A stretch of DNA of 64,000 nucleotides, taken from NCBI RefSeq assembly GCF_036500295.1, contig NZ_DASYCH010000075.1:3458-67457 (forward strand). The letters are read 5' to 3'. Positions 11,991 through 58,854 of this stretch are shown one piece after another (within the stretch, counting starts at the first letter, position 1; every line of letters begins with the position of its first letter). The position numbers were made by a program, and so were the translations under genes. Origin of the DNA: Puia sp. Its GTDB lineage: Bacteria > Bacteroidota > Bacteroidia > Chitinophagales > Chitinophagaceae. The notes under the pieces were generated by a model. The model ran no database searches and was not told the DNA's origin. It saw only the letters and a list, made by a program, of their open reading frames with translations.

Positions 11991-12077
11991 GTGCCCCGGG
12001 ATGGGTTTCACCGAAAATAACCCATCCCCGGTGCACGGCTTATGATGGGCCTTCGGCCGACGAGCCTGTGGCTCGTC
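11991..12077 (-). repeat. Three-hairpin intergenic element, copy A
   Basis: Minus strand GACGAGCC-ACA-GGCTCGTC, GGCC-GAA-GGCC, CATCATAAG spacer, long GGGGATGGGTT/AACCCATCCC hairpin; homologous to copies at 55035, 56469, 58869 and 59246. Confidence 0.9.
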
Positions 12078-13791
12078 AAAGGTCTCCTTTTTTTAATTCA
12101 GTCACGGCAAAATCCGCCGCCCTCGCCGTAAGGGCCATATAGGTCAACGAAGGATTTTGACAGGCCGACGAGGCCATACAAGCCCCATCCGTAACAAAAA
12201 CATTCGGCGCATCCCAAACCTGGTTATGCCCGTTCAGCACACTGGTCTTCGGATCACGCCCCATCCGCGCCGAACCCATCTCATGGATGCCGTCACCCAC
12301 CGGATGTCCCCGGTCCCACGAATGAACGCCCTTTACCCCGGCCGCCTCCAGCATCGCCACCGCCTCCGACTGCATATCTTTCCGCATCTTCTTCTCATTG
12401 TCCTTCAGCTCCGCATCCATCGACAGGATCGGCAAACCCCACTTGTCCTTCTTCTCCTTGTCAAGCGTGATCTTGTTCTCATGATAAGGAAGCAGCTCTC
12501 CAAATCCCGTGATGCCGATCGTCCACTGCCCCGGCTCCGTCAACGTCTCCTTCAACGTAGCGCCCACGCTCATCTCCGCCACATTCCGCTGCCAGCCTTC
12601 CCGGCTCGCTCCTCCCTGATAACCAAATCCCCGCAAATAATCGCGTTTATCGCCAAACAGGTTCGCAAACCGGACAATATATATTCCATTTGGTCTCCTG
12701 CCATACACATACTTGTCCTCATATCCCTCCATCACCCCGGCAGCACCGAGATTGTAGTGATGATCCATGATGTTGTGCCCAAGTTCCCCGCTGCTGCTGC
12801 CCAGCCCGCCCGGCCAGACATCCGTGGCCGAGTTCATCAACACCCAGGCACTGTTCAGCGCACTGGCATTGACAAAAACGATCTTCGAAGAGAAGGTATA
12901 GGTCTTGTTCGTTTCGGCATCCAACACCTCCACTCCCGTAGCTCGCTGCTTATCCTTGTCATAAAGGACACGGGTCACGATCGAGTACGGTCTCACCGTC
13001 AGCTTTCCCGTCGCCCGCGCAGCCGGCAGTGTCGAGGATTGCGTACTGAAATACCCGCCGAACGGACAACCCTCCCAGCAACGGTTCCGGAACTGACACT
13101 GGGTCCTCCCGGGGATCGGCGCCGTCAGGTTGGCGCTGCGGCCGATGATCATATGCCGCTGCCCCTTGAAATGTTCCTTGATCCGGGCCGCCACATCCTT
13201 CTCCACACAGTTCATCTCCATCGGCGGCAAAAAATGGCCATCCGGCAACTGCGGCAACCCTTCCTTACTGCCATTGACACCCGCAAACCGCTCCACATAG
13301 TCGTACCAGGATTCAACATCCTTATAGCGGATCGGCCAGTCGATAGCCCAGCCGTCTTTTTCATTGGCGCCGAAATCATGATCGCTCCACCGGTAGCTCT
13401 GCCTTCCCCAAAGGATCGATCGCCCTCCCAGCCGGTAAGCACGCCACCAGTTGAAAGGCTTTACTTCCGAATACGGACAATCCACATCCTTCGCCCAGGA
13501 ATCGATCACGGCCTCGGTAGCCCCCCAGGTCCTGGCCATATAAGGCCGGTCCTTCAACTCCTGCTGCGTCACCTTGCCCCGGTGCGGAAAGTCCCAGGGG
13601 TCCATATTCGCCGTCTTATAATCCTTTATATGCTCATAGTTGGGCCCACGCTCAAGCATAAGCGTCCGAAGCCCTTTTTCGGTAAGCTCCTTTGCCGCCC
13701 AGCCGCCACTGATCCCGCTGCCGATAACAATGGCGTCATAACGGTTCTGCTCATCCGCCCGGTTGTTGATATTTAGCGTGTCCCCGCCCAT
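12076..13791 (-). CDS. GMC family FAD oxidoreductase (putative glycoside 3-dehydrogenase large subunit), paralog 2
   Basis: GSGISGG FAD motif, C-terminal IHEMGSARMG and NPSLTYMALTARA. Confidence 0.9.
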   Translation of the reverse strand: MGGDTLNINNRADEQNRYDAIVIGSGISGGWAAKELTEKGLRTLMLERGPNYEHIKDYKTANMDPWDFPHRGKVTQQELKDRPYMARTWGATEAVIDSWAKDVDCPYSEVKPFNWWRAYRLGGRSILWGRQSYRWSDHDFGANEKDGWAIDWPIRYKDVESWYDYVERFAGVNGSKEGLPQLPDGHFLPPMEMNCVEKDVAARIKEHFKGQRHMIIGRSANLTAPIPGRTQCQFRNRCWEGCPFGGYFSTQSSTLPAARATGKLTVRPYSIVTRVLYDKDKQRATGVEVLDAETNKTYTFSSKIVFVNASALNSAWVLMNSATDVWPGGLGSSSGELGHNIMDHHYNLGAAGVMEGYEDKYVYGRRPNGIYIVRFANLFGDKRDYLRGFGYQGGASREGWQRNVAEMSVGATLKETLTEPGQWTIGITGFGELLPYHENKITLDKEKKDKWGLPILSMDAELKDNEKKMRKDMQSEAVAMLEAAGVKGVHSWDRGHPVGDGIHEMGSARMGRDPKTSVLNGHNQVWDAPNVFVTDGACMASSACQNPSLTYMALTARAADFAVTELKKGDL

Positions 13792-13794
13792 GAC

Positions 13795-15474
13795 TTACAG
13801 GTTGCCCTTTTTTAGTTCACTTACTGCATGATCCACGGCCCTTGCCGTAAACGCCATATAACTCAACGAAGGATTCACACAATTGGCCGAGACCATGAAC
13901 GAACCGTCGGTCACATAGACATTCTTCGCATCCCACAGCTGGTTCCAGGAGTTCAGCACCGATGTCTTCGGGTCCCTCCCCATCCTTGCCGTACCCATCT
14001 CGTGGATCCCACGGCCGGGATAAGGATTGTCGCTCCGGCTCTTTACATTCTTCACCCCACAGGCTTCCAGCATCTCCACCGCATCGGCCTCCATATCCTT
14101 TCTCATCTTCAACTCATTTTCCTTCAGCTCGCAATCGATGTTCAGGACATTGAGCCCCCATTTATCCTTCTTCGTCTTGTCCAGCGTCACCTTGTTCTCA
14201 TGATAAGGCAGTATCTCGCCGAACCCGCCGATATTCATCGTCCAGGAACCGGGTTCCGTCAACGCCTCCTTGTATTCTTTCCCGATGCTATACTCGGCGA
14301 TCTGGTGATTATAGCCCTCACGGCCGCCCCCACCCTGATAACCGAAGCCCCGCAGATAATCGCGCTTGTCCCCGTTGATATTCCGGAAACGCGGGATATA
14401 GATGCCGTTTGCCCGGCGCCCGAAATAATACTTATCCTCATACCCCTCGACATGACCGCTGGCCCCGACACCAAGATGATGGTCCATCAGGTTATGACCC
14501 AGTTCCCCACTGCTGCTGCCCAGCCCGTCAGGCCAGATATCGGTGGCGGAATTCATCAGGATCCAGGCGCTGTTCAGCGTCGAAGCATTCAGGAAAACGA
14601 TCTTCGCCTTGTATTCGTAGGTCTTGTTGGTCTCTGCATCAAGCACCTCCACACCCGTGGCCTTCTTCGTATCCTTATCATACAGGATCTTCGTAACGAT
14701 CGACCAGGGACGCAAGGTCAGATTACCCGTCGCCTGCGCGGCCGGCAGCGTCGATGACTGCGTACTGAAATAGCCGCCGAACGGACAACCCAGCCAGCAC
14801 TTGTTCCGAAACTGACAGCCCGGCCTTCCTTCGTGCGGCACCGTGATATTGGCTACCCGCCCGATGATCATATGCCGCATACCCTTGTAATGATCCTTGA
14901 GTCTCGCCGAGACATCCTTCTCCACACAGGTCATATCATAAGCCGGCAGGAAATGACTGTCCGGCAGATGCGCGATATTTTCCTTCGACCCGCTGATCCC
15001 GGCCCATTTCTCGACATAAGTGTACCAGGGTTCGATCTCGTGATAACGAACCGGCCAGTCGATCGCAATCCCTTCGCGCTTATTCGCCTCGTAATCGAAA
15101 TCGCTCCACCGGTAACTCTGACGGCCCCACATCAGGCTCCGGCCGCCCGTATGATAACCCCGAAACCAGTCAAATCGCTTGGTCTCTGTATAAGGGCTTT
15201 CGCTATCCTTGCACCAGAAATCCAGGTTCCATTCGTTCAACGGATAGTCGCGCTTCAGCACCGGGTAATCCGCCTTCATCTGCTCCGTCGCCTTGCCGCG
15301 ATGCGGAAAATCCCAGGCCTCCTTGTTCGCACTCGGGTAATCCTTAACGTGTTCGATATGCCGTCCCCGCTCCAGCATGATCACCTTCAATCCTTTTTGG
15401 GTAAGCTCTTTGGCAGCCCAGCCTCCGCTGATGCCGCTGCCGATGACGATCGCGTCATACGTATTGTCAGCCAT
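13795..15474 (-). CDS. GMC family FAD oxidoreductase (putative glycoside 3-dehydrogenase large subunit), paralog 1
   Basis: GSGISGG, IHEMGTARMG, NPSLSYMAFTARA; clearly paralogous to 12076-13791. Confidence 0.9.
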   Translation of the reverse strand: MADNTYDAIVIGSGISGGWAAKELTQKGLKVIMLERGRHIEHVKDYPSANKEAWDFPHRGKATEQMKADYPVLKRDYPLNEWNLDFWCKDSESPYTETKRFDWFRGYHTGGRSLMWGRQSYRWSDFDYEANKREGIAIDWPVRYHEIEPWYTYVEKWAGISGSKENIAHLPDSHFLPAYDMTCVEKDVSARLKDHYKGMRHMIIGRVANITVPHEGRPGCQFRNKCWLGCPFGGYFSTQSSTLPAAQATGNLTLRPWSIVTKILYDKDTKKATGVEVLDAETNKTYEYKAKIVFLNASTLNSAWILMNSATDIWPDGLGSSSGELGHNLMDHHLGVGASGHVEGYEDKYYFGRRANGIYIPRFRNINGDKRDYLRGFGYQGGGGREGYNHQIAEYSIGKEYKEALTEPGSWTMNIGGFGEILPYHENKVTLDKTKKDKWGLNVLNIDCELKENELKMRKDMEADAVEMLEACGVKNVKSRSDNPYPGRGIHEMGTARMGRDPKTSVLNSWNQLWDAKNVYVTDGSFMVSANCVNPSLSYMAFTARAVDHAVSELKKGNL

Positions 15475-38093: not shown

Positions 38094-39245
38094 ATGAAGC
38101 TCCGGGTCCTGTATATTTCTCTATTGATGGTGACGCTGCTGGTGGTCGTCATCCGCTGCAAACAGGTCTATGCGCCGCCCGCGATCAAAGCCACAAACAA
38201 TTACCTGGTAGTCGACGGATTCATTAACACCGGCGCCAACGCCGTCTCCTCCATAAATCTCAACAGAACAAGAGGCCTCAACGACTCCACACCTTCGGGC
38301 ATCCCCGAGTTGCATGCCAAAATCTCCATCGTAGCATCCGGCGGCGCCGGCTATCCCCTCACCGATACCGCCGGCAACGGCACCTACACAAGCGCCCCGT
38401 TAAACCTCGACATCAACCAACGCTATTCCCTCGAGATCACGACCTCGGACGGCCGCAAATATGCTTCCGATGCAGTCTCCTGCAAACGAACCCCGCCGAT
38501 CGACAGCGTCTACTGGCGCCAGCCCGGTGACCTCACGATCTATGCGACTACCCATGATCCCGCCAACAATACCCGGTACTACCGCTTCGACTATCTCGAA
38601 ACCTGGGAACACGATGCCAACCTGCAAACACCCTGGATAGTCGTCAACGGCAGGATCACCGCCGCCGACTCCCTCACTCAGCGATCCCAGTGCTGGACCA
38701 CGGTCCCCTCCGGCAATGTCCTGCTGGCCAATTCCACCGCCCTCTCCACGGATGTCATCAACGGCTTTGCACTGACCACCATCCCCTACGGCGACACCCG
38801 GTTCAACATCAAATACACCATCCTCGTCCGGGATTACGCCTTGTCGGAAGACGCTTACAATTACTGGCTACTCGTTCAGAAAACCTCCGACAATCTCGGT
38901 ACGCTGTTCGACCTGCAGCCCACTCAGTTGCTCGGCAACATCCACTGCACCAGCAATCCCTCCGAAGCGGTCATCGGCTATCTCTCCGCCACTTCGGTAC
39001 AGGAGCAACGGATATTCATCTACCGGTATTATCTGAACAGCTGGCCCCACAACGATCTGACCTATGGCTGCGATTCGATAAGTATTCCCAAAAACCCAGC
39101 GGACGCCCTTATCTACACCTACCCGGATACCCTCTATGCGCCCTGGTATTTCATCACGAATGGTCCCCTGGTGCTCGCCTCCCGCATCTGCCTGGATTGC
39201 ACGCTCTTCGGCGGTTCCAATAAAAGACCCTCTTTCTGGCAATAA
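38094..39245 (+). CDS. DUF4249 family lipoprotein, copy 1
   Basis: YLVVDGFI, PPIDSVYW, GNIHC...VIGYLSA, C-terminal CLDCTLFGGSNKRPSFW. Confidence 0.85.
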   Translation: MKLRVLYISLLMVTLLVVVIRCKQVYAPPAIKATNNYLVVDGFINTGANAVSSINLNRTRGLNDSTPSGIPELHAKISIVASGGAGYPLTDTAGNGTYTSAPLNLDINQRYSLEITTSDGRKYASDAVSCKRTPPIDSVYWRQPGDLTIYATTHDPANNTRYYRFDYLETWEHDANLQTPWIVVNGRITAADSLTQRSQCWTTVPSGNVLLANSTALSTDVINGFALTTIPYGDTRFNIKYTILVRDYALSEDAYNYWLLVQKTSDNLGTLFDLQPTQLLGNIHCTSNPSEAVIGYLSATSVQEQRIFIYRYYLNSWPHNDLTYGCDSISIPKNPADALIYTYPDTLYAPWYFITNGPLVLASRICLDCTLFGGSNKRPSFWQ

Positions 39246-40399
39246 TGGGGATCCAAAAAAGACATATCATCCCTTTCCTGTTGCTGCTCCTCGCCGGCGG
39301 GATCCGCTGCAGACAAACCTACGCCCCGCCCGCCATCCAGGCCGTCAACAGCTATCTGGTGGTGGATGGGTTTATCAACACCGGGACAAATAGCATCACC
39401 ACCTTTAAGATCAACCGGACCAGAAATCTCGGTGACTCGACCGTCACCGGCATCCCGGAATTGCACGCCCGGATCTCCATCGTAAGCGACAATGGCGCCA
39501 CCTGGTCCCTCACCGACACCGCCGGCAACGGCACCTATACCAGCGCTGCCCTCACGCTCGACATCAATCATCGTTATAGCATCGCGATCACGACCTCCGA
39601 CGGCCGAAAATATGCTTCCGACCCGGTCCCCTGTAAGCAGTCCCCCCCGCTCGACAGCGTCTACTGGCGCCAGCCCAATGATTTCTTCGTCTATGTTTCC
39701 TCTCATGACCCCACCGGCAACACCCGCTACTACCGGTACGACTATACCGAAACCTGGGCGCACGATGCCACCTTTTCAACGCCCTGGGGCGTGGCCAACG
39801 GCAAGATCATCGCATTGGACACGACAGATCAAACGACGTTTTGCTGGACGACCGTCAACTCTTCCAACGTCCAGCTGGTCAATAATGCCGCACTTTCGCA
39901 GGACATCGTCTCCGGATATAACGTCAGGACCATCCCAAACGGCGATTCCAAAATAACCAAACGCTATAGTATCCTCGTCCGCCAATACGCCCTGACGGAA
40001 GAAGCATACAATTATTGGCTGCTCATTCAAAAGACCTCCGACAACCTGGGAACTCTTTTCGACGTCCAGCCCACCCAACTCGTGAGCAACATCCACTGCA
40101 TCACCAACTCTTCCGAACCCGTCATCGGCTTCCTCAGCGCCACCTCGGTACAACAACAAAGGATCTTCGTCTATCAGACCTGGCTCAACAACTGGCAGCA
40201 CCAAAGTCTCGTTTATCAGTGTGATACCCTCGAATTAGGCTATGATCCGTCCACGTTCCCGGCTTTCAATCCACCAAAGCAGGATTCCGGCTACGCTCCC
40301 TATTATTTTCATGGCTTTACGGTCCTGATACTGGCTCCACAATTTTGTCTGGACTGCAGATTGTTCGGCGGCACAAACCAAAAACCTTCATTCTGGTAA
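39245..40399 (+). CDS. DUF4249 family lipoprotein, copy 2
   Basis: Close paralog of 38094-39245; TAATG stop/start overlap. Confidence 0.85.
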   Translation: MGIQKRHIIPFLLLLLAGGIRCRQTYAPPAIQAVNSYLVVDGFINTGTNSITTFKINRTRNLGDSTVTGIPELHARISIVSDNGATWSLTDTAGNGTYTSAALTLDINHRYSIAITTSDGRKYASDPVPCKQSPPLDSVYWRQPNDFFVYVSSHDPTGNTRYYRYDYTETWAHDATFSTPWGVANGKIIALDTTDQTTFCWTTVNSSNVQLVNNAALSQDIVSGYNVRTIPNGDSKITKRYSILVRQYALTEEAYNYWLLIQKTSDNLGTLFDVQPTQLVSNIHCITNSSEPVIGFLSATSVQQQRIFVYQTWLNNWQHQSLVYQCDTLELGYDPSTFPAFNPPKQDSGYAPYYFHGFTVLILAPQFCLDCRLFGGTNQKPSFW

Positions 40400-49420: not shown

Positions 49421-49445
49421 AAAAAAAGCCCCTCGGGAGAGGGGC
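49421..49445 (-). terminator. Terminator of the ribosomal operon/map transcript
   Basis: GCCCCTC-TCCC-GAGGGGC-TTTTTTT directly followed by the next ATG. Confidence 0.8.
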
Positions 49446-49455
49446 GCCGGTATCT

Positions 49456-50274
49456 TTAAGACGGCAGCGCAGCTGCCTGTCCAGTAAATAGATGATTATT
49501 CGCCTTCTCCGCAGCCTCGATAATACTATAATCCGAAAGGATATCCGCCTTCCCCTTCTTCACCGCCACATCATGCTCAAAATGCACCGAAGGCTGATGA
49601 TCCACCGTCCGCACCGTCCACCCATCACTCTCCGTATAAACGTCCCGCTTCCCCTGGTTGATCATCGGCTCGATCGCCAACACCATCCCCTCTTTTAGCT
49701 TCGCCCCCGTACCCCGGCGGCCATAGTTCGGGATCTGCGGGTCCTCATGAAGACTCTTCCCCAATCCATGCCCCACCAGCTCCCGGACCACCCCATAGCC
49801 ATATTTCCTCGCCGTATGCTCCTCTATCGCATAGGAGATATCTCCTACCCTGCCGCCCGCAATGGCCTTCTCGATCCCCTTGTACAGGGATTCCTTGGTC
49901 ACCTGGATCAGTTGCGTCACCTCCGGCCCCGGATCACCGATCGCAAAAGTATAGGCATGATCCCCATGATACCCCTTCTTGATCACCCCGATATCCACCG
50001 AAATGATATCCCCTTCCTTCAGCGCCTGCCCATTGGGAAACCCATGCACCACGACATCATTCACCGAAGTACAGGAGTTAAACGGATAACCCCGGTAATT
50101 GAGGAACGAAGGAATGGCCCCATGATCGCGGATAAACTCCCCGATCAGCTTGTCCAGTTCCAACGTCGTCGTCCCTGGCTTCAGGGTCTTAGCTACTTCA
50201 GTAAGCGTCTTGCTGACCAGCAGCGCGCTGTCGCGCATCAACTCTATCTCCGCCGGTGTCTTATAGTGTATCAT
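49456..50274 (-). CDS. map: Type I methionine aminopeptidase
   Basis: SVNDVVVHG, DIGV...GDHA, GHGLG, AIEPM, HFEH; start at MIHYK. Confidence 0.95.
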   Translation of the reverse strand: MIHYKTPAEIELMRDSALLVSKTLTEVAKTLKPGTTTLELDKLIGEFIRDHGAIPSFLNYRGYPFNSCTSVNDVVVHGFPNGQALKEGDIISVDIGVIKKGYHGDHAYTFAIGDPGPEVTQLIQVTKESLYKGIEKAIAGGRVGDISYAIEEHTARKYGYGVVRELVGHGLGKSLHEDPQIPNYGRRGTGAKLKEGMVLAIEPMINQGKRDVYTESDGWTVRTVDHQPSVHFEHDVAVKKGKADILSDYSIIEAAEKANNHLFTGQAAALPS

Positions 50275-50284
50275 ACTTGTAAAA

Positions 50285-50371
50285 TTGCGCGAATAGGTCT
50301 GCAAGCCAAATTAGCCCTATTCGCGCAAAAGGCTAACGTCTGACCTTCGGTCGAGCCGCTTCCAGCGGCTC
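50285..50371 (-). repeat. Three-hairpin intergenic element, copy F (diverged subfamily)
   Basis: GAGCCGCT-GGA-AGCGGCTC, GACC-GAA-GGTC, spacer AGACGTTAG, 13-bp stem TTGCGCGAATAGG/CCTATTCGCGCAA; same geometry and length as copies A-E. Confidence 0.7.
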
Positions 50372-50487
50372 TTATAAAAAGACCTGTCAGGAGGTCTAAT
50401 TCCTAACAGGTCACTATAGTAAAAAGTTTATTCGCTCTTTCTTACGATCCCGCGGTTCTGTTCCGGCGATCCTCGCCGGCCCAAACC

Positions 50488-51822
50488 CTAGATCACCGCA
50501 TTCGAAACCGAATTCGCGCGCCCCTGGATCCTTCCACTCTTCATCAACCCGTCATACTGACGCATCAGCAGCTGGGTCTCTACCTGCTGGAGGCTATCCA
50601 GGATAACACCCACCATGATCAACAGCGACGTGCCGCCAAAGAAAGAGGCAAACCCCTGCGTGACCCCCAGTCGTTGCGCAAATCCGGGCAGGATACCCAC
50701 GATAGCCAGCAAAAAGGCGCCGGGCAACGTGATCTTATCCATCACCGAACCGATATAGTCGGCCGTCGGCTGACCCGGCTTTACACCCGGGATGAAACCG
50801 TTGTTCCGCTTCAGATCGTCGGCAATCTGCTTGGGATTAAATATCAGCGCCGTATACAGGAAAGTAAACCCGATAACGATCACGCCGTAAATAACCATAT
50901 GGATATAGTCGCGCGGATCGGAGAACAGTCTCGCGATCCCCTTCGTGGAATCAAAGCTGGCAAAGATAGTCGGCAGGAACATGATCGCCTGCGCAAAGAT
51001 GATCGGCATTACACCCGAAGAGTTGACCTTCAAAGGCAGGAACTGCCGCGCGCCACCAAACTGGCGGCTGCCGACGATTTGCTTGGCATAGTTGACCGGC
51101 ACCTTGCGAACGCCCTGGATCAGGACGATAAGCCCCATGATGATGGCCACCAGAACGGCTATCTCGATGACAAAAACAAGGATACCACCGCTGCCGGTAG
51201 CGACCTTGGCATTCCACTCCTGCACGAAGCTGCGGGGAAGCCGGGCAAGGATACCGATCATGATGATCAGCGACTGCCCGTTGCCAAGTCCTTTATCCGT
51301 GATCTTCTCACCCAGCCACATGACAAACAGCGTACCCGCGGTCAGCACAATCGGCGTCACCAGCCAGAAATAAGCGCTGAACGAGTCGAGGATCGCATCC
51401 TTGCCAAGTCCTTTCAGATAAGTTACATAAGCATAAGCCTGAACAAAGGTGACGATCACCGTCAGATAACGCGTGTATTGGTTGATCTTCTTCTGACCGC
51501 TGGCCCCTTCCTTCTGGATCTTCTGCATCTGCGGGATCAGGATCGTCATCAGCTGCATAAAGATCGAAGCGGAGATATAAGGCATGATACCCAACGCCAG
51601 GATCGAAGCCTGGGAGAAGGCGCCGCCGGAAAACGCATCGATCAGTCCAAGGGCTCCGCTCTGAGCTCCGCTCAACGCGCTAAGCTTATTCGGATCGATC
51701 CCGGGCAATACGATAAACGTTCCAAGCCGGTAAACGAAGATCAGGCCGAAAGTCACGAGGATCTTACTTCTCAGATCCTCGATGCTCCAGATATTTCTAA
51801 GTGTCTGTACTAATTTCTTCAC
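50488..51822 (-). CDS. secY: Preprotein translocase subunit SecY
   Basis: ALGIMPYISASI, WLGEKIT..GLGNG.S, GFIPGVKPG, GGTSLLIMVGV; GTG start. Confidence 0.98.
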   Translation of the reverse strand: MKKLVQTLRNIWSIEDLRSKILVTFGLIFVYRLGTFIVLPGIDPNKLSALSGAQSGALGLIDAFSGGAFSQASILALGIMPYISASIFMQLMTILIPQMQKIQKEGASGQKKINQYTRYLTVIVTFVQAYAYVTYLKGLGKDAILDSFSAYFWLVTPIVLTAGTLFVMWLGEKITDKGLGNGQSLIIMIGILARLPRSFVQEWNAKVATGSGGILVFVIEIAVLVAIIMGLIVLIQGVRKVPVNYAKQIVGSRQFGGARQFLPLKVNSSGVMPIIFAQAIMFLPTIFASFDSTKGIARLFSDPRDYIHMVIYGVIVIGFTFLYTALIFNPKQIADDLKRNNGFIPGVKPGQPTADYIGSVMDKITLPGAFLLAIVGILPGFAQRLGVTQGFASFFGGTSLLIMVGVILDSLQQVETQLLMRQYDGLMKSGRIQGRANSVSNAVI

Positions 51823-51847: not shown

Positions 51848-51880
51848 AAAAAGACAAAGGACGCACTCAAAGATGCGTCC
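51848..51880 (-). terminator. Terminator/attenuator-like hairpin between rplO and secY
   Basis: GGACGCA-TCTTTGAG-TGCGTCC followed by TTTGTCTTTTT on the minus strand. Confidence 0.5.
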
Positions 51881-52348: not shown

Positions 52349-52413
52349 TGTTTTTGATTTTGACTTACGGGGAATCGCCCCTCGCGAGCAGGCCCTTCAG
52401 GGCCCGCAAAAAA

Positions 52414-52596
52414 CTATTTTACCTCTTCCACTTTAACCAGGTGATCCACCTTACGGACCATACCCAGGATCTGCGGAGTCGCTTCCACTTCCTTCGTAGC
52501 GTGAAGCTTGTTCAGCCCGAGAGCCTTCAGCGTCTGCTTTTGACGTTCAGGCCGGTCGATGCCGCTCTTTACTTGCGTGATCTTGATCTTTGCCAT
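52414..52596 (-). CDS. rpmD: 50S ribosomal protein L30
   Basis: KITQVKSGI...TLKALGL...GMVRKV. Confidence 0.97.
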   Translation of the reverse strand: MAKIKITQVKSGIDRPERQKQTLKALGLNKLHATKEVEATPQILGMVRKVDHLVKVEEVK

Positions 52597-52649
52597 AACT
52601 TATTTTTTGGACTCTCCCCCGCAGGCTTTCGCCCGCGGCGCGTGTCAAT

Positions 52650-53168
52650 TTATCCGTTAAAAACTTTCTTTAATGAGAGATGACGCGTGCGGGAAACCTG
52701 GATCGGCTCACGCAGCATAGCCAACGCCTTGACCGTAGCCTTTACCACGTTATGCGGATTGGCAGAACCCAGCGACTTCGCCAGAACGTCGGTTACCCCG
52801 GCGCTTTCCAGAACGGCGCGCATAGAGCCCCCGGCGATCACACCCGTACCGTGAGCAGCAGGCTTGATCAACACCTTCGCAGCACCTTCCTTGGCCAGCT
52901 GGTCGTGCGGGATCGTCCCATGCATCACCGGAACTTTGATCAGGTTCTTCTTGGCATCCTCGATCCCCTTGGTGATCGCTTCCTGTACCTCTTTTGCCTT
53001 GCCCAGACCGTGACCGACAACCCCGTTCTCATTGCCCACTACAACCAATGCAGAGAAGCTGAATGCCCGGCCGCCTTTTGTCGTTTTTACAACACGATTG
53101 ATCGCAACCACCTTCTCCTTCAGTTCCAGGTCACCGGCTTTAACTCTGTTTAAGATTACTTTTGACAT
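52650..53168 (-). CDS. rpsE: 30S ribosomal protein S5
   Basis: [23 protein letters not shown]. Confidence 0.98.
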
Positions 53169-53198
53169 TGTAATTATTTACGAAGCTTATTATAAATA

Positions 53199-53552
53199 TT
53201 AAAAGTTCAGTCCACCTTCACGGGCGCCATCGGCAACAGCCTTTACCCGGCCGTGGTACAGATAACCGCCGCGATCGAAAACCACATCCTTCAGCCCCAG
53301 CTCGACAGCCTTCCGGGCGATCGCACTGCCAACCATCTTACCCTTCTCAGACTTCGTACCCTTCTGGGCAGCAATGTCCTTGTCGCGGGAAGAGGCGGAT
53401 GCCAGCGTCTTGGCGCCATCATCGTCAATCAGCTGAACATAGATGTCGTTGTTGCTCCTGAACACAGACAGCCGGGGACGCTGAGCCGATCCTGCAATCT
53501 TCTTGCGAACGCGGAACTTGATTTTCTCTCTTCTGAGTGCTTTCGTATCCAT
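53199..53552 (-). CDS. rplR: 50S ribosomal protein L18
   Basis: [23 protein letters not shown]. Confidence 0.98.
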
Positions 53553-53600
53553 GATATTCTATTTACTCCCCTGATTCCAGCCAGGAGACAGTGTTTAAAA

Positions 53601-54155
53601 TTATTTACCAGCAGCCTTACCAGCTTTCTTCCGTACCACTTCACCCACATAACGGACACCTTTACCCTTGTACGGCTCGGGCTTACGCAGACTGCGGATC
53701 TTTGCGGCAACCGCTCCGATCAACTGCTTGTCGGTCCCTTCCAGCGTGATCTTGGGATTCTCCCCTTTATTCTGCTCGGTTTGCAGCTTCAGCTCCTTGG
53801 GAATTTCGAAGATGATATTGTGCGAGTAGCCCAGCGCCAGGTCCAGGAGATTGCCCTGGTTGGATGCCTTGAAACCTACCCCGATCAATTCCAGTTGTCT
53901 TTTGTAGCCATCCGTTACACCCTTCACCATGTTGGAAGCCAGTGCGCGATACAGACCATGCAGCGCACGGTGACGGATCTGATCCGTAGGCCGGACGATC
54001 TCCAGATGACCTTCCTTTATTTCAACCTTGATATCGCGGTCGATGCTCTGCTTCAGTTCACCCTTCGGGCCCTTTATAGTCATCACATTCTCAGCGCTAA
54101 CGGTCACTGTCACACCCTTGGGAAGAACGACCGGCTGTTTACCTATACGAGACAT
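53601..54155 (-). CDS. rplF: 50S ribosomal protein L6
   Basis: MSRIGKQP, RKPEPYKGKGVRY. Confidence 0.98.
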   Translation of the reverse strand: MSRIGKQPVVLPKGVTVTVSAENVMTIKGPKGELKQSIDRDIKVEIKEGHLEIVRPTDQIRHRALHGLYRALASNMVKGVTDGYKRQLELIGVGFKASNQGNLLDLALGYSHNIIFEIPKELKLQTEQNKGENPKITLEGTDKQLIGAVAAKIRSLRKPEPYKGKGVRYVGEVVRKKAGKAAGK

Positions 54156-54256
54156 AATAATTCGATTTGTTTATTAAGATATATTGTTTCGTGTTGCCGG
54201 CCGGTCAGCCAGTATAGGTACGGGCTTAATGTACCGGCAACGCCTCTTCAGAACAA

Positions 54257-54655
54257 CTAATAGATGTAGCAAAGCACCTCGCCGCCTACATTCTGCAGCT
54301 TGGCTTCCTTGTCCGTCATCACACCCTTCGAGGTCGAGATGATCGCTACCCCAAGACCATTCTTCACCCGGACAAACTCGGCTGGGCTCGCATACTGGCG
54401 AAGACCCGGACGGCTAACCCTTTCAAGCGACTTGATCGCAGGTTCCTTGGTGGTCGGATCATACTTCAACGCGATCTTGATCACGCCTTGCTTGCTGTCA
54501 TCCTCGAACTTGTATTTAAGGATATAACCCTTGTCATACAGGATCTCGGTCATACGCTTCTTCAGGTTGGAAGCAGGGATCTCGACGATCCGGTGATTCG
54601 CCATTTGCGCATTACGGACTCTTGTCAGAAAGTCTGCTATTGGATCAGTAACCAT
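54257..54655 (-). CDS. rpsH: 30S ribosomal protein S8
   Basis: DPIADFLTRVRNA, VSRPGLRQY, STSKGVMTD. Confidence 0.98.
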   Translation of the reverse strand: MVTDPIADFLTRVRNAQMANHRIVEIPASNLKKRMTEILYDKGYILKYKFEDDSKQGVIKIALKYDPTTKEPAIKSLERVSRPGLRQYASPAEFVRVKNGLGVAIISTSKGVMTDKEAKLQNVGGEVLCYIY

Positions 54656-54750
54656 TGTCTATGTTCAGTTATAGATTATCAAAAATTATTACAATGCGAT
54701 ATCCAATGATATCATTCTCTTCGGCCCCCGTTTCCGGAGGATTCCCGCTC

Positions 54751-56031: not shown

Positions 56032-56083
56032 TTTATTATATTTTTCCCCGCTGCGGCGGAGCGTTCAATTCCTTGGTTTCCTC

Positions 56084-57568: not shown

Positions 57569-58429
57569 CTATCTCCGTCCACCGCCGCCGCCGCCGCGAC
57601 GATCTCCACCGCCGCCACCAGGCCTGCGGTCACCGCCGCCGCCGCCATGACCACCACGACGATCTCCACCCCGGTCTCCACCGCCACGACGATCGCCGCC
57701 GCCACGATGTCCATGATCATGATCACCATCCCTTCTGTCCCGGCGATCGCTCAGCCCACCTTCCTTACCACCGACAAAATTCGGGTTCAGGTCTCTCTTC
57801 GCCAGCACCTCACCCTTACAGATCCACACCTTGATACCGATCTTACCATAGACCGTCAGCGCAAACACATTCGCATAGTCGATATCCATCCGCAACGTGT
57901 GCAGCGGGGTCCGGCCCTGCTTGATCTCTTCCGTACGGGCGATCTCGGCGCCGCCCAGACGGCCGCTAACCTTGATCTTGATCCCCTCGGCACCCATCCG
58001 CAACGCAGAGGCGATCGCCATCTTGATCGCACGTTTATAGTTGATACGATTCTCTATCTGCCGGGCAATGGTATCCCCAACGATGTTCGCATCCAGCTCG
58101 GGCCGGCGGATCTCCAGGATATTGATCTGGACATCATCCTTGCCGGTCAGCTTCTTCAGCTCTTCCTTGATACGGTCCACCTCACCACCACCTTTCCCGA
58201 TGATGATGCCGGGCTTCGAAGTGTGGATCGTCACGATCAGCTTGTTCAGCGTCCGCTCGATCACGATCTTCGCAATCCCGCCCTTATTGATACGGGCATT
58301 CAGGTAGGTTCTGATCTTGTTGTCCTCGATCAACTTGGAAGCATAATCTTTTTTGCTGCCATACCAGTTGGATTCCCAACCGCGGATGATCCCTAACCTG
58401 GCCCCAATAGGATTCGTTTTCTGACCCAT
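57569..58429 (-). CDS. rpsC: 30S ribosomal protein S3 with long Gly/Arg-rich C-terminal tail
   Basis: [33 protein letters not shown], then GDRRGGG repeats. Confidence 0.98.
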
Positions 58430-58455: not shown

Positions 58456-58854
58456 TTAGTTTTCCGCAGGCTGATTTTTGACCTTCGGTCGAACCGCCTT
58501 CGCCGGTTCACTGACTTTCTGATCAACGATAATGGTTACATGGTTGCTTCTCTTGCGAACACGATAACCTCTGCCCTGAGGGGCCGGACGCATACGCTTC
58601 AAAGTCCTTCCACCATCAACAAAGACCGTCTTAACGACCAGCGCGGCATCGGCCGCACTCTGACCTTCATTCTTCTGCTCCCAGTTCTTCACCGCAGACC
58701 ACAACAGCTTATGCAGCGGAGTGGAAGAATGTTGCGGGTGGTGCTCCAGCAAAGCCAGAGCTTTCTCAACATGCATACCGCGGATCTCATCAGCCAGTAA
58801 ACGCATTTTACGCGGCGATGTCGGGTAATTTCTCAATTTAGCTACTGCTTCCAT
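58456..58854 (-). CDS. rplV: 50S ribosomal protein L22
   Basis: [29 protein letters not shown]; about 20-aa C-terminal extension. Confidence 0.98.

Follow-up and report, generated by a model that had tools for sequence, protein, structure and literature searches.

For Proteobacteria and Firmicutes there are good descriptions of structured intergenic repeats, and for Bacteroidota there are hardly any. The BOX elements of Streptococcus pneumoniae and the ERIC (IRU) elements of enterobacteria are dispersed, non-coding sequences of about 100-130 nt that are transcribed from intergenic regions and form stable RNA folds. They are modular with partial copies, occupy sites that are filled or empty in different strains, and have orientation-dependent effects on the expression of their neighbours or on mRNA stability; to our knowledge, no dedicated transposase has been established for them. 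Correia elements of Neisseria and other MITEs (miniature inverted-repeat transposable elements) are non-autonomous, co-transcribed sequences of about 100-150 bp that alter neighbour expression and show insertion polymorphism, and MITEs carry terminal inverted repeats and a target duplication of constant length (TA in the case of Correia elements). A REP consists of one palindrome of 20-40 nt with a GTAG or CGTC tag, and REPs are located mostly downstream of genes and often in inverted pairs (PMC3733652). In this study, a stretch of 64,000 nt from Puia sp., an organism represented by a single soil metagenome (contig NZ_DASYCH010000075.1, positions 3,458 to 67,457; hereafter the window) was analysed. 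It contains several copies of a three-hairpin repeat, one of which, copy F, lies between the genes secY and map. On balance, we favour the view that copy F is one copy of a dispersed, probably non-autonomous mobile structured repeat that is co-transcribed and whose fold is kept by selection, and that it is not a map-specific regulator. Loci from other genomes and metagenomes are referred to by L numbers.

The three-hairpin repeat and its conserved fold

The genes map (49456..50274) and secY (50488..51822), both identified by NCBIfam, lie on the minus strand together with the ribosomal-protein operon of the window. The interval between them contains the following features:

50376..50412, minus: terminator-like hairpin after secY, GACCTGTTAGG..CCTGACAGGTC followed by TTTTT; the top terminator-like site in the scan
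50285..50371, minus: copy F, a three-hairpin element of subfamily II, 87 nt; recognised by its sequence, its fold and the models R1 (34.4 bits) and R2 (53.2 bits, E 7e-13) described below
50371..50353, minus: H1 of copy F, an 8-bp hairpin, GAGCCGCT-GGA-AGCGGCTC
50352..50342, minus: H2 of copy F, GACC-GAA-GGTC, which abuts H1 directly
50341..50329, minus: spacer of copy F, AGACGTTAGCCTT, 13 nt
50328..50285, minus: H3 of copy F, a 13-bp stem (TTGCGCGAATAGG / CCTATTCGCGCAA) with an 18-nt A/U-rich loop
50275..50284, minus: 10-nt A/U-rich linker TTTTACAAGT from H3 to the map ATG (50274..50272), unpaired in the fold

The minimum free energy (MFE) fold of copy F RNA consists of exactly the three hairpins; its energy is -40.6 kcal/mol (z = -4.2), and none of 200 shuffled sequences equalled it. 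H1 begins 116 nt downstream of the secY stop codon TAG (50490..50488). Sequence and fold thus agree with the geometry that an original prediction, made from the letters of the DNA, had given for this copy: 87 nt, three hairpins, 10 nt to the map ATG and about 116 nt from the secY stop. The linker has A at -3 and -6 and contains no Shine-Dalgarno sequence. In a 186-nt fold, CUAUAG (50419-50414, minus), just upstream of the secY hairpin, pairs with CUAUAA (50266-50261; map codons 3-5) and encloses copy F; this pairing may be a matter of chance, since the start of map differs in L043.

The relationship of copy F to copies A-E of the window was assessed with three models. R1 is a covariance model of structure and sequence trained on copies A-E only; R2 is a model of structure and sequence built from 67 copies of other genomes and contains no window sequence; R3 is a sequence-only model trained on copies A-E only. 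It had been proposed that a covariance model from A-E alone be checked for recovery of copy F above background, and R1 did recover it: copy F was aligned end to end (model positions 1-101) with E 5e-7 and ranked sixth in the window, where A-E scored 77-108 bits. The matches below it were partial copy G at 14.4 bits and then, at 11.2 bits or less, unrelated background. R3 gave copy F 10.2 bits (E 0.03), against 34.4 bits with R1; therefore, about 24 bits of its R1 score come from structure. The MFE folds of all six copies agree in showing H1, an abutting H2, the spacer and H3 in the same order and spacing. The identity of copy F to A-E is 56-59%, and that among A-E is 64-83%. Its membership in the three-hairpin family is virtually certain. 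The other copies in the window are as follows:

11994..12077, minus: copy A, subfamily I, flanked by a GMC oxidoreductase gene and an open reading frame (ORF) of 193 aa; R2 101.6 bits
55039..55123, minus: copy B, subfamily I, between rplE and rpsN; R2 99.3 bits
56471..56554, minus: copy C, subfamily I, between rpsQ and rplN; R2 85.0 bits
58874..58954, minus: copy D, variant H3, between rpsS and rplV, with an ortholog in L043; R2 64.8 bits
59250..59333, minus: copy E, subfamily I, between rplB and rpsS; R2 88.3 bits
58469..58509, minus: partial copy G, F-like, without H3; H1 GAACCGGCGAAGGCGGTTC, then GACCGAAGGTC and spacer AAAAATCAGCC; R1 14.4 bits, R2 25.3 bits (E 2.5e-5)
52362..52407, minus: decayed copy in front of rplO, in which an H1-like hairpin runs straight into a short H3 (GCGAGGGGCGATTCCCCGTAAGTC), without H2 and spacer

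The repeat has a length of about 90-100 nt and consists of a G+C-rich H1 of 7-8 bp, the abutting H2, a spacer of 10-13 nt and a longer H3 with an A/U-rich loop. The consensus of H2 is a near-invariant mini-hairpin, G-N-C-C-GAA-G-G-N-C. The repeat comprises at least two sequence subfamilies. Subfamily I, to which the window copies A-E belong, has the spacer CATCATAAG. Subfamily II, which is abundant and is represented by F and partial copy G, is characterised by GAACCGCTGGAAGCGGTTC (H1), GACCGAAGGTC and AGACATTAGCC and by a spacer AGAC-R-TTAGC; the second subfamily in the R1 alignment has the spacer AGACATTAGC and an H3 that starts TTTGCGGGA..GCTAATTT. A scan of 185,579 species genomes with an exact 20-mer of subfamily I, GGCCGAAGGCCCATCATAAG, returned 42 loci, 40 of them labelled Puia, Flavitalea, Chitinophagaceae or Sphingobacteriales. 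Copies are present in a cultured strain as well, Puia dinghuensis CGMCC 1.15448 (L006 and L025). The other two loci, L011 and L042 from metagenome-assembled genomes of Rhizobiaceae and Planctomycetota, were rejected as chance 20-mer matches in unrelated sequence. R1 detected 67 copies in the 42 loci. A metagenome scan with the subfamily II word matched at least 120 stretches, and R2, run on 80 of these loci, detected 110 copies. Copy F is 78-91% identical to more than 20 of the copies from soil metagenomes, most of which share H1 GAACCGCTGGAAGCGGTTC and the GACC/GGTC form of H2, and 81% identical (BLAST) to a copy before rpsE in L043 (7130-7213). The claim that copy F keeps almost none of the sequence therefore holds relative to A-E and fails against the second subfamily. 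Across the 177 copies, H2 takes the forms GGCC/GGCC (116 copies), GACC/GGTC (28) and GTCC/GGAC (9). The paired GACC/GGTC state, described earlier as a compensatory double change, is indeed present in F; it is a fixed state of the subfamily among the copies sampled, and not an event in F.

The family is confined to Puia-like Chitinophagaceae, which are soil bacteria. A search of the whole window against Rfam release 15 at the gathering score found only tRNA-Val, and at E <=5 the segment 49400-64000 gave one chance U7 match on the other strand and no family. No description of the element was found in the literature on repeats of Chitinophagaceae and Bacteroidetes, MITEs or REPs with their associated tyrosine transposases (RAYTs), or under the word GGCCGAAGGCC. 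Plasmids and phages gave no BLAST match to the element. In pattern scans of viral contigs, the subfamily II word matched once, in L166 (IMGVR_UViG_3300020380_000001, 306.5 kb), which could be a bacterial contig that was classified wrongly, or else a large region of prophage.

Reduced and tandem forms of the repeat were also observed. In L018 (559-702, minus), two truncated copies, made up of H1, H2 and spacer followed by GTCTCTCTCTC, form a tandem with a distance of 79 nt between them; full copies in adjacent tandem are present in L048, L080 and L090. A lone H1-type hairpin, GCGGACC-NNN-GGTCCGC, lies about 15 nt before rpsH in L043 (5622-5688), L045 (948-1014) and L003, and is absent from the window; thus, the element seems modular or decays to single hairpins. 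In the window, the H3 part of the decayed rplO copy is identical to that of a full copy at the same site in L003, and the decayed copy falls below both model thresholds. At its 3' end, the rplV frame (58456..58854) contains partial copy G, whose translation forms part of L22's C-terminal tail. This partial copy is kept in L043, where the stop codon of L22 falls in the H1 loop and the protein ends 14 residues earlier (118 aa, versus 132 aa in the window). The GMC oxidoreductase ORF (12076..13791) ends in a TGA stop (12076-12078, minus) that takes in the first two H1 bases of copy A, whose insertion appears to have supplied or reshaped the end of this gene.

The original prediction also held that structure rather than sequence is conserved, and this stands: the fold is kept across divergent sequences in two independent sets of copies. 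Among the 67 genome copies, 92.1% of cells are paired, compared with 69.6% for shuffled partners and 27-48% when the partners are slid by 1-3 columns, and 23 of 26 pairs have changed on both sides. The corresponding values for the 110 metagenome copies are 91.8%, 66.5% and 31-49%, with 24 of 26 pairs changed on both sides. Since both alignments had been fitted to the model, they are biased towards structure; the contrast with the slid versions is still large. G-U pairs number 73, as against 21 A-C mismatches, which favours the sense strand.

Orthologous copies give a further view of this conservation. Copy F of the window and its ortholog in L081 are identical at 79 of 87 positions (91%), copy D and its ortholog in L043 at 80 of 88 (91%), and partial copy G and its counterpart in L043 at 42 of 51, while the identity at fourfold-degenerate sites of map and secY is 0.59 (n=319). 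Between the F orthologs there is one compensatory change from G-C to A-U in H1 and one from G-C to G-U in H3; the other differences fall in the spacer and loop, and no pair is broken; the D orthologs show one compensatory pair in H3. It is likely that the fold is under selection in place.

In subfamily II, the spacer word UUAGCS is complementary to SGCUAA atop H3 (in copy F, 50336-50331 with 50315-50310, minus). UUAGCG occurs with CGCUAA in 19 copies and UUAGCC with GGCUAA in 17, and there are 2 crossed cases. This complementarity could represent an alternative pairing or switch, or the mere linkage of two sub-subfamilies. As a pseudoknot or switch between spacer and H3 loop, it was tried and not adopted: 79% of cells are paired, versus 75% for shuffled partners, with a single covarying pair that separates the two sub-subfamilies.

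Insertion of copy F and dispersal of the family

The relatives compared are 81-85% identical to the window over aligned DNA, and the same intergenic sites are filled in some of them and empty in others:

rpsS site: filled in the window (E); empty, with a 16-nt spacer, in L030 and L043
rplV site: filled in the window (D) and L043; empty in L030
rplN site: filled in the window (C); empty in L043 and L003
rpsN site: filled in the window (B) and L003; empty in L043, L045 and a metatranscriptome contig of a relative
rpsE site: filled in L043 (F-like copy); empty in the window, L045 and L003
rplW site: filled in L030; empty in the window
map site: filled in the window (F) and L081; empty in L043, L044, L045 and L003

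L003 has further copies before rplF, rpmD, rplO and secY, and metatranscriptome contigs of relatives supply a further empty allele at rpsN and another at rpsG. In the window and in L003, the copies before rpsN stand at different points of one 19-nt spacer, suggesting independent insertions. Dispersal of the family by copy-paste is highly probable.

At the four empty secY-map sites, a terminator-like hairpin is followed by a T-run, 7-22 nt and the ATG. The metagenome genome L081 carries an orthologous copy F with the same flanks, and 7 nt separate the end of the model match from the map ATG. The comparison shows that the insertion of copy F took place in the short A/T-rich stretch that separates the secY hairpin from the start of map, just 3' of the hairpin's T-run, and that the copy has since been kept in at least two lineages. 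The flanks of copy F are TTTTTA and TTTTA, as against TTTTTTA in the empty site, and the linker TTTTACAAGT is the counterpart of the empty site's original spacer TTTTACGATT. The secY hairpin itself was flagged at 50412..50381, separate from copy F; L043, L044, L045 and L081 have the same hairpin or almost the same one, and L003 has a similar one. The stretch after secY, AATAAACTTTTTACTATAGTGACCTGTTAGGAATTAGACCTCCTGACAGGTCTTTTT (50376-50440, minus), is near-identical in the window, L043, L045 and L081 despite the 59% at fourfold sites. This hairpin is terminator- or attenuator-like, and transcription of map would need read-through. Further hairpins of this kind follow rplO (51880..51859) and map (49445..49428).

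These results bear on two arguments made earlier for copy F. Its position had been taken as fixed relative to the downstream start codon. For the family, this receives support, as the median distance is 16 nt from the end of the model match to the ATG (25 nt or less in 70 of 120 copies) and 53 nt from the upstream stop to H1; for copy F, closeness to the ATG follows from its insertion point between the secY T-run and the start of map. The second argument, that the data favour a functional RNA leader over simple copy-paste, is not supported: F is itself a pasted subfamily II copy, four map sites are empty, and the element precedes more than 100 unrelated genes without a common function. Copy-paste and selection on the fold both apply to the family.

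The genes behind the element include the ribosomal-protein genes rpsL, rpsG, rpsN, rplW, rpmD, rplO, rplF, rpsD and rpsO, as well as metG, argG, fumC, thrB, sufC, greA, genes for sigma factors and many genes for secreted proteins; some copies lie between convergent genes. A sense ORF of at least 60 codons starting with ATG no more than 100 nt downstream was found for 79 of 97 copies, versus 30 of 97 in the antisense mirror control; ORF calling was crude, and the ORF-distance figures are approximate. No sense-strand hairpin of the element was flagged as an intrinsic terminator in the scan. In antisense reading, copies B, C, D and E each have an H1 that runs into a T-rich stretch and scores as terminator-like, and the conserved spacers would become AUG-containing words. 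Antisense insertions in operons may therefore be harmful, which is a plausible cause of the orientation bias. Metatranscriptome contigs of relatives run from the rpsL coding sequence through the upstream element, which fits co-transcription; they show no transcript ends.

Explanations for the repeat

Bacteroidia disregard Shine-Dalgarno sequences; what tunes their initiation is the structure of the mRNA together with A residues upstream (PMC6847099). Under the view favoured here, copies would survive mainly in sense orientation just upstream of start codons, where they would be transcribed into mRNA. The self-contained RNA fold would leave the A-rich initiation region single-stranded, and the element may be a neutral-to-useful intercistronic or leader module that serves as a structural insulator or as a 5' or 3' stabiliser. 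Start-site insulation, mRNA-end protection and processing guidance are candidate roles of the fold. That selection acts on the RNA as an insulator or stabiliser is a tentative proposal, possible rather than probable. A stronger form of it is doubtful: a domesticated mobile RNA module in which the hairpin, about 8-20 nt upstream of the AUG, and the A-rich tail mark the start or hold it open, replacing a Shine-Dalgarno helix or a standby site. In that form, each cistron of the long ribosomal-protein mRNA would be insulated, new copies would provide an evolvable retuning of expression, and the conserved complementarity of the spacer (UUAGCS) to SGCUAA in the H3 loop could act as a switch.

The main rival is transposition of single-stranded DNA (ssDNA): the repeat would be a selfish ssDNA element, IS200/IS605-derived or of the REP/RAYT type, whose hairpins, on one DNA strand, are recognition structures for a trans-acting HUH/Y1 transposase and whose RNA fold has no role. 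It would explain the filled and empty sites across relatives, the near-identical dispersed copies within subfamilies and the strand specificity of the fold. The invariant CCGAAGG is an extraordinarily stable mini-hairpin as DNA, and RNA versions of such mini-hairpins are much less stable (PMC13037366); a Bacteroidetes RAYT subclass, 2.6, is flanked by "atypical secondary structures" that recur in the genome (PMC6006769). However, neither an HUH/Y1 motif in the 1.25 Mb of element-bearing loci nor a conserved 5' target sequence was found. The 91% identity of resident orthologs, as against 59% at neutral sites, and their pairing-preserving changes are unexpected for a decaying copy, and the sense bias towards start codons (79 versus 30 of 97) looks stronger than replication-strand preference alone would produce. 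We regard this explanation as unlikely, with a probability that is still appreciable.

The remaining explanations assign the element a dedicated function. It is very improbable that copy F is a cis-regulatory RNA leader controlling translation of map; its location 10 nt from the ATG, its stable fold and its conservation at the same site in L081 would suit such a leader, but L043, L044, L045 and L003 have no such copy at this site and start map 7-22 nt after the terminator-like hairpin, and near-identical copies precede metG, argG, fumC, rpsL, and sigma-factor and secreted-protein genes. Only slightly less improbable is a shared binding platform, in which one trans-acting protein or RNA binds H2 and the spacer and the copies form a post-transcriptional regulon. 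The CGAAG core, present in 165 of the 177 copies, the conserved unpaired spacer words CATCATAAG and AGACATTAGC and the geometry common to both subfamilies fit this proposal, while the downstream genes share no common function, the conservation of H2 and spacer is inflated by the way in which the loci were found, and we know of no candidate factor. Mimicry of a tRNA anticodon by UCAUAA in the subfamily I spacer was considered and dropped, because F and G are without UCAUAA. A portable promoter, with a Bacteroidetes -7 box TAnnTTTG carried in the A/T-rich H3 loop and serving, for example, map after the secY terminator, seems hardly credible. Copies do face the gene near its start codon, F directly follows a terminator-like hairpin, and the L081 ortholog has TAATTTTG in its H3 loop. 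Yet among 135 full copies only 12 contain TAnnTTTG, the consensus of the loop has C rather than G at its end, copy F has TAATTTGG, and the covariation of the stems would go unexplained. In addition, the upstream TTTG lies 12 nt from the box, where the usual spacing in Bacteroides and Flavobacterium promoters is about 19; a sigma-70 promoter scan does not apply to Bacteroidota.

Several points weigh against a mobile repeat whose RNA fold is kept by selection. The CCGAAGG motif is exceptionally stable in DNA rather than in RNA (PMC13037366). A consistent target-site duplication was not found, and the filled/empty comparisons at rpsE, rpsN, rplN, rpsS and rpsG showed none; copy F is the sole case in which the flanks would allow a duplication. 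Terminal inverted repeats are absent, as the 5' end of H1 and the 3' end ...CGCACATA are not complementary and form only local hairpins. The scan for an HUH...Y transposase motif was negative over 1.25 Mb of element-bearing loci, which are not whole genomes, and RAYTs are single-copy. The loci had been seeded by exact words covering H2 and the spacer, so that the apparent invariance there is partly an effect of the search. The conservation of orthologs rests on three pairs, to which gene conversion could contribute. For 27 of 115 copies, the distance between the end of the model match and the ATG is 0-5 nt; H3 would then fall within the ribosome footprint, an arrangement as compatible with a neutral or inhibitory effect as with a helpful one. 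Lastly, the RNA contigs come only from relatives, are undirected, neither strand-specific nor end-mapped, and may contain DNA.

Other features of the window and comparison with known systems

Other structured or repeated sequences occur in the window. In nearly all spacers of at least 45 nt in the spc operon (52349-54750 and 56032-56083, minus), one G+C-rich hairpin precedes 12-18 nt of A-rich tail and then the ATG; this is the case before rplX, rplF, rplR, rpmD and rplO, and the plan is present even without a recognisable element. The long hairpin before rplF is kept in L043 and L045. The GC-rich short repeats of the CCGCCGCC type at 57573-57727 correspond to the Gly/Arg-rich low-complexity C-terminal tail of ribosomal protein S3. 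Tandem paralogous genes for GMC-type oxidoreductases are located at 12076-15474 (repeat offset 1719 nt), and tandem paralogous ORFs of about 384 aa at 38094-40399 (repeat offset 1151 nt); both pairs show about 71-76% DNA identity.

The family is unusual in that its copies stand in sense orientation next to start codons, have colonised the essential ribosomal-protein operon differently in each close relative and, once inserted, are kept with compensatory changes. It offers natural alleles with and without the element for testing the effects of upstream structure on initiation and mRNA stability in Bacteroidota. For the annotation of Puia-like genomes, the family accounts for long spacers, for odd C-terminal tails (that of L22) and for gene calls that reach too far at the N-terminus.

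Like the leader RNAs of ribosomal proteins, the repeat places structured RNA before genes of the S10 and spc operons. Those operators, however, are gene-specific, conserved by descent and mimic rRNA sites, whereas the three-hairpin repeat precedes many unrelated genes, varies in its operon positions among close relatives and has no Rfam match. It differs from Correia elements and other MITEs in that its ends are not mutual inverted repeats and the filled and empty sites compared show no consistent duplication. Partial copy G, which encodes part of the L22 tail, and copy A, which supplies the stop codon of the upstream ORF, recall the palindromic elements of Rickettsia, but most copies of the three-hairpin repeat are intergenic. 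REP, BIME and REPIN elements, with their RAYT transposases, are likewise short structured intergenic repeats with a strand-specific hairpin that are transcribed with operons and thought to stabilise mRNA. The present element is instead a composite of three different hairpins of about 90 nt, located next to start codons and occurring singly or in tandem without inverted dimers; it has no conserved tag, as the ends of H1 vary (AGCGG, GACGG, GAACC), and no RAYT was found in the loci.

With BOX and ERIC, the three-hairpin repeat shares its size, dispersal, lack of coding capacity, transcribed spacers, stable fold, partial copies and filled/empty sites. It differs from them in having no sequence similarity and in consisting of three distinct hairpins, as opposed to boxA-B-C modules or one long imperfect palindrome; it is also found in Chitinophagaceae and prefers the sense orientation within about 25 nt of start codons. 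By analogy, among the systems described so far, the element would work most like BOX, ERIC or REPs.

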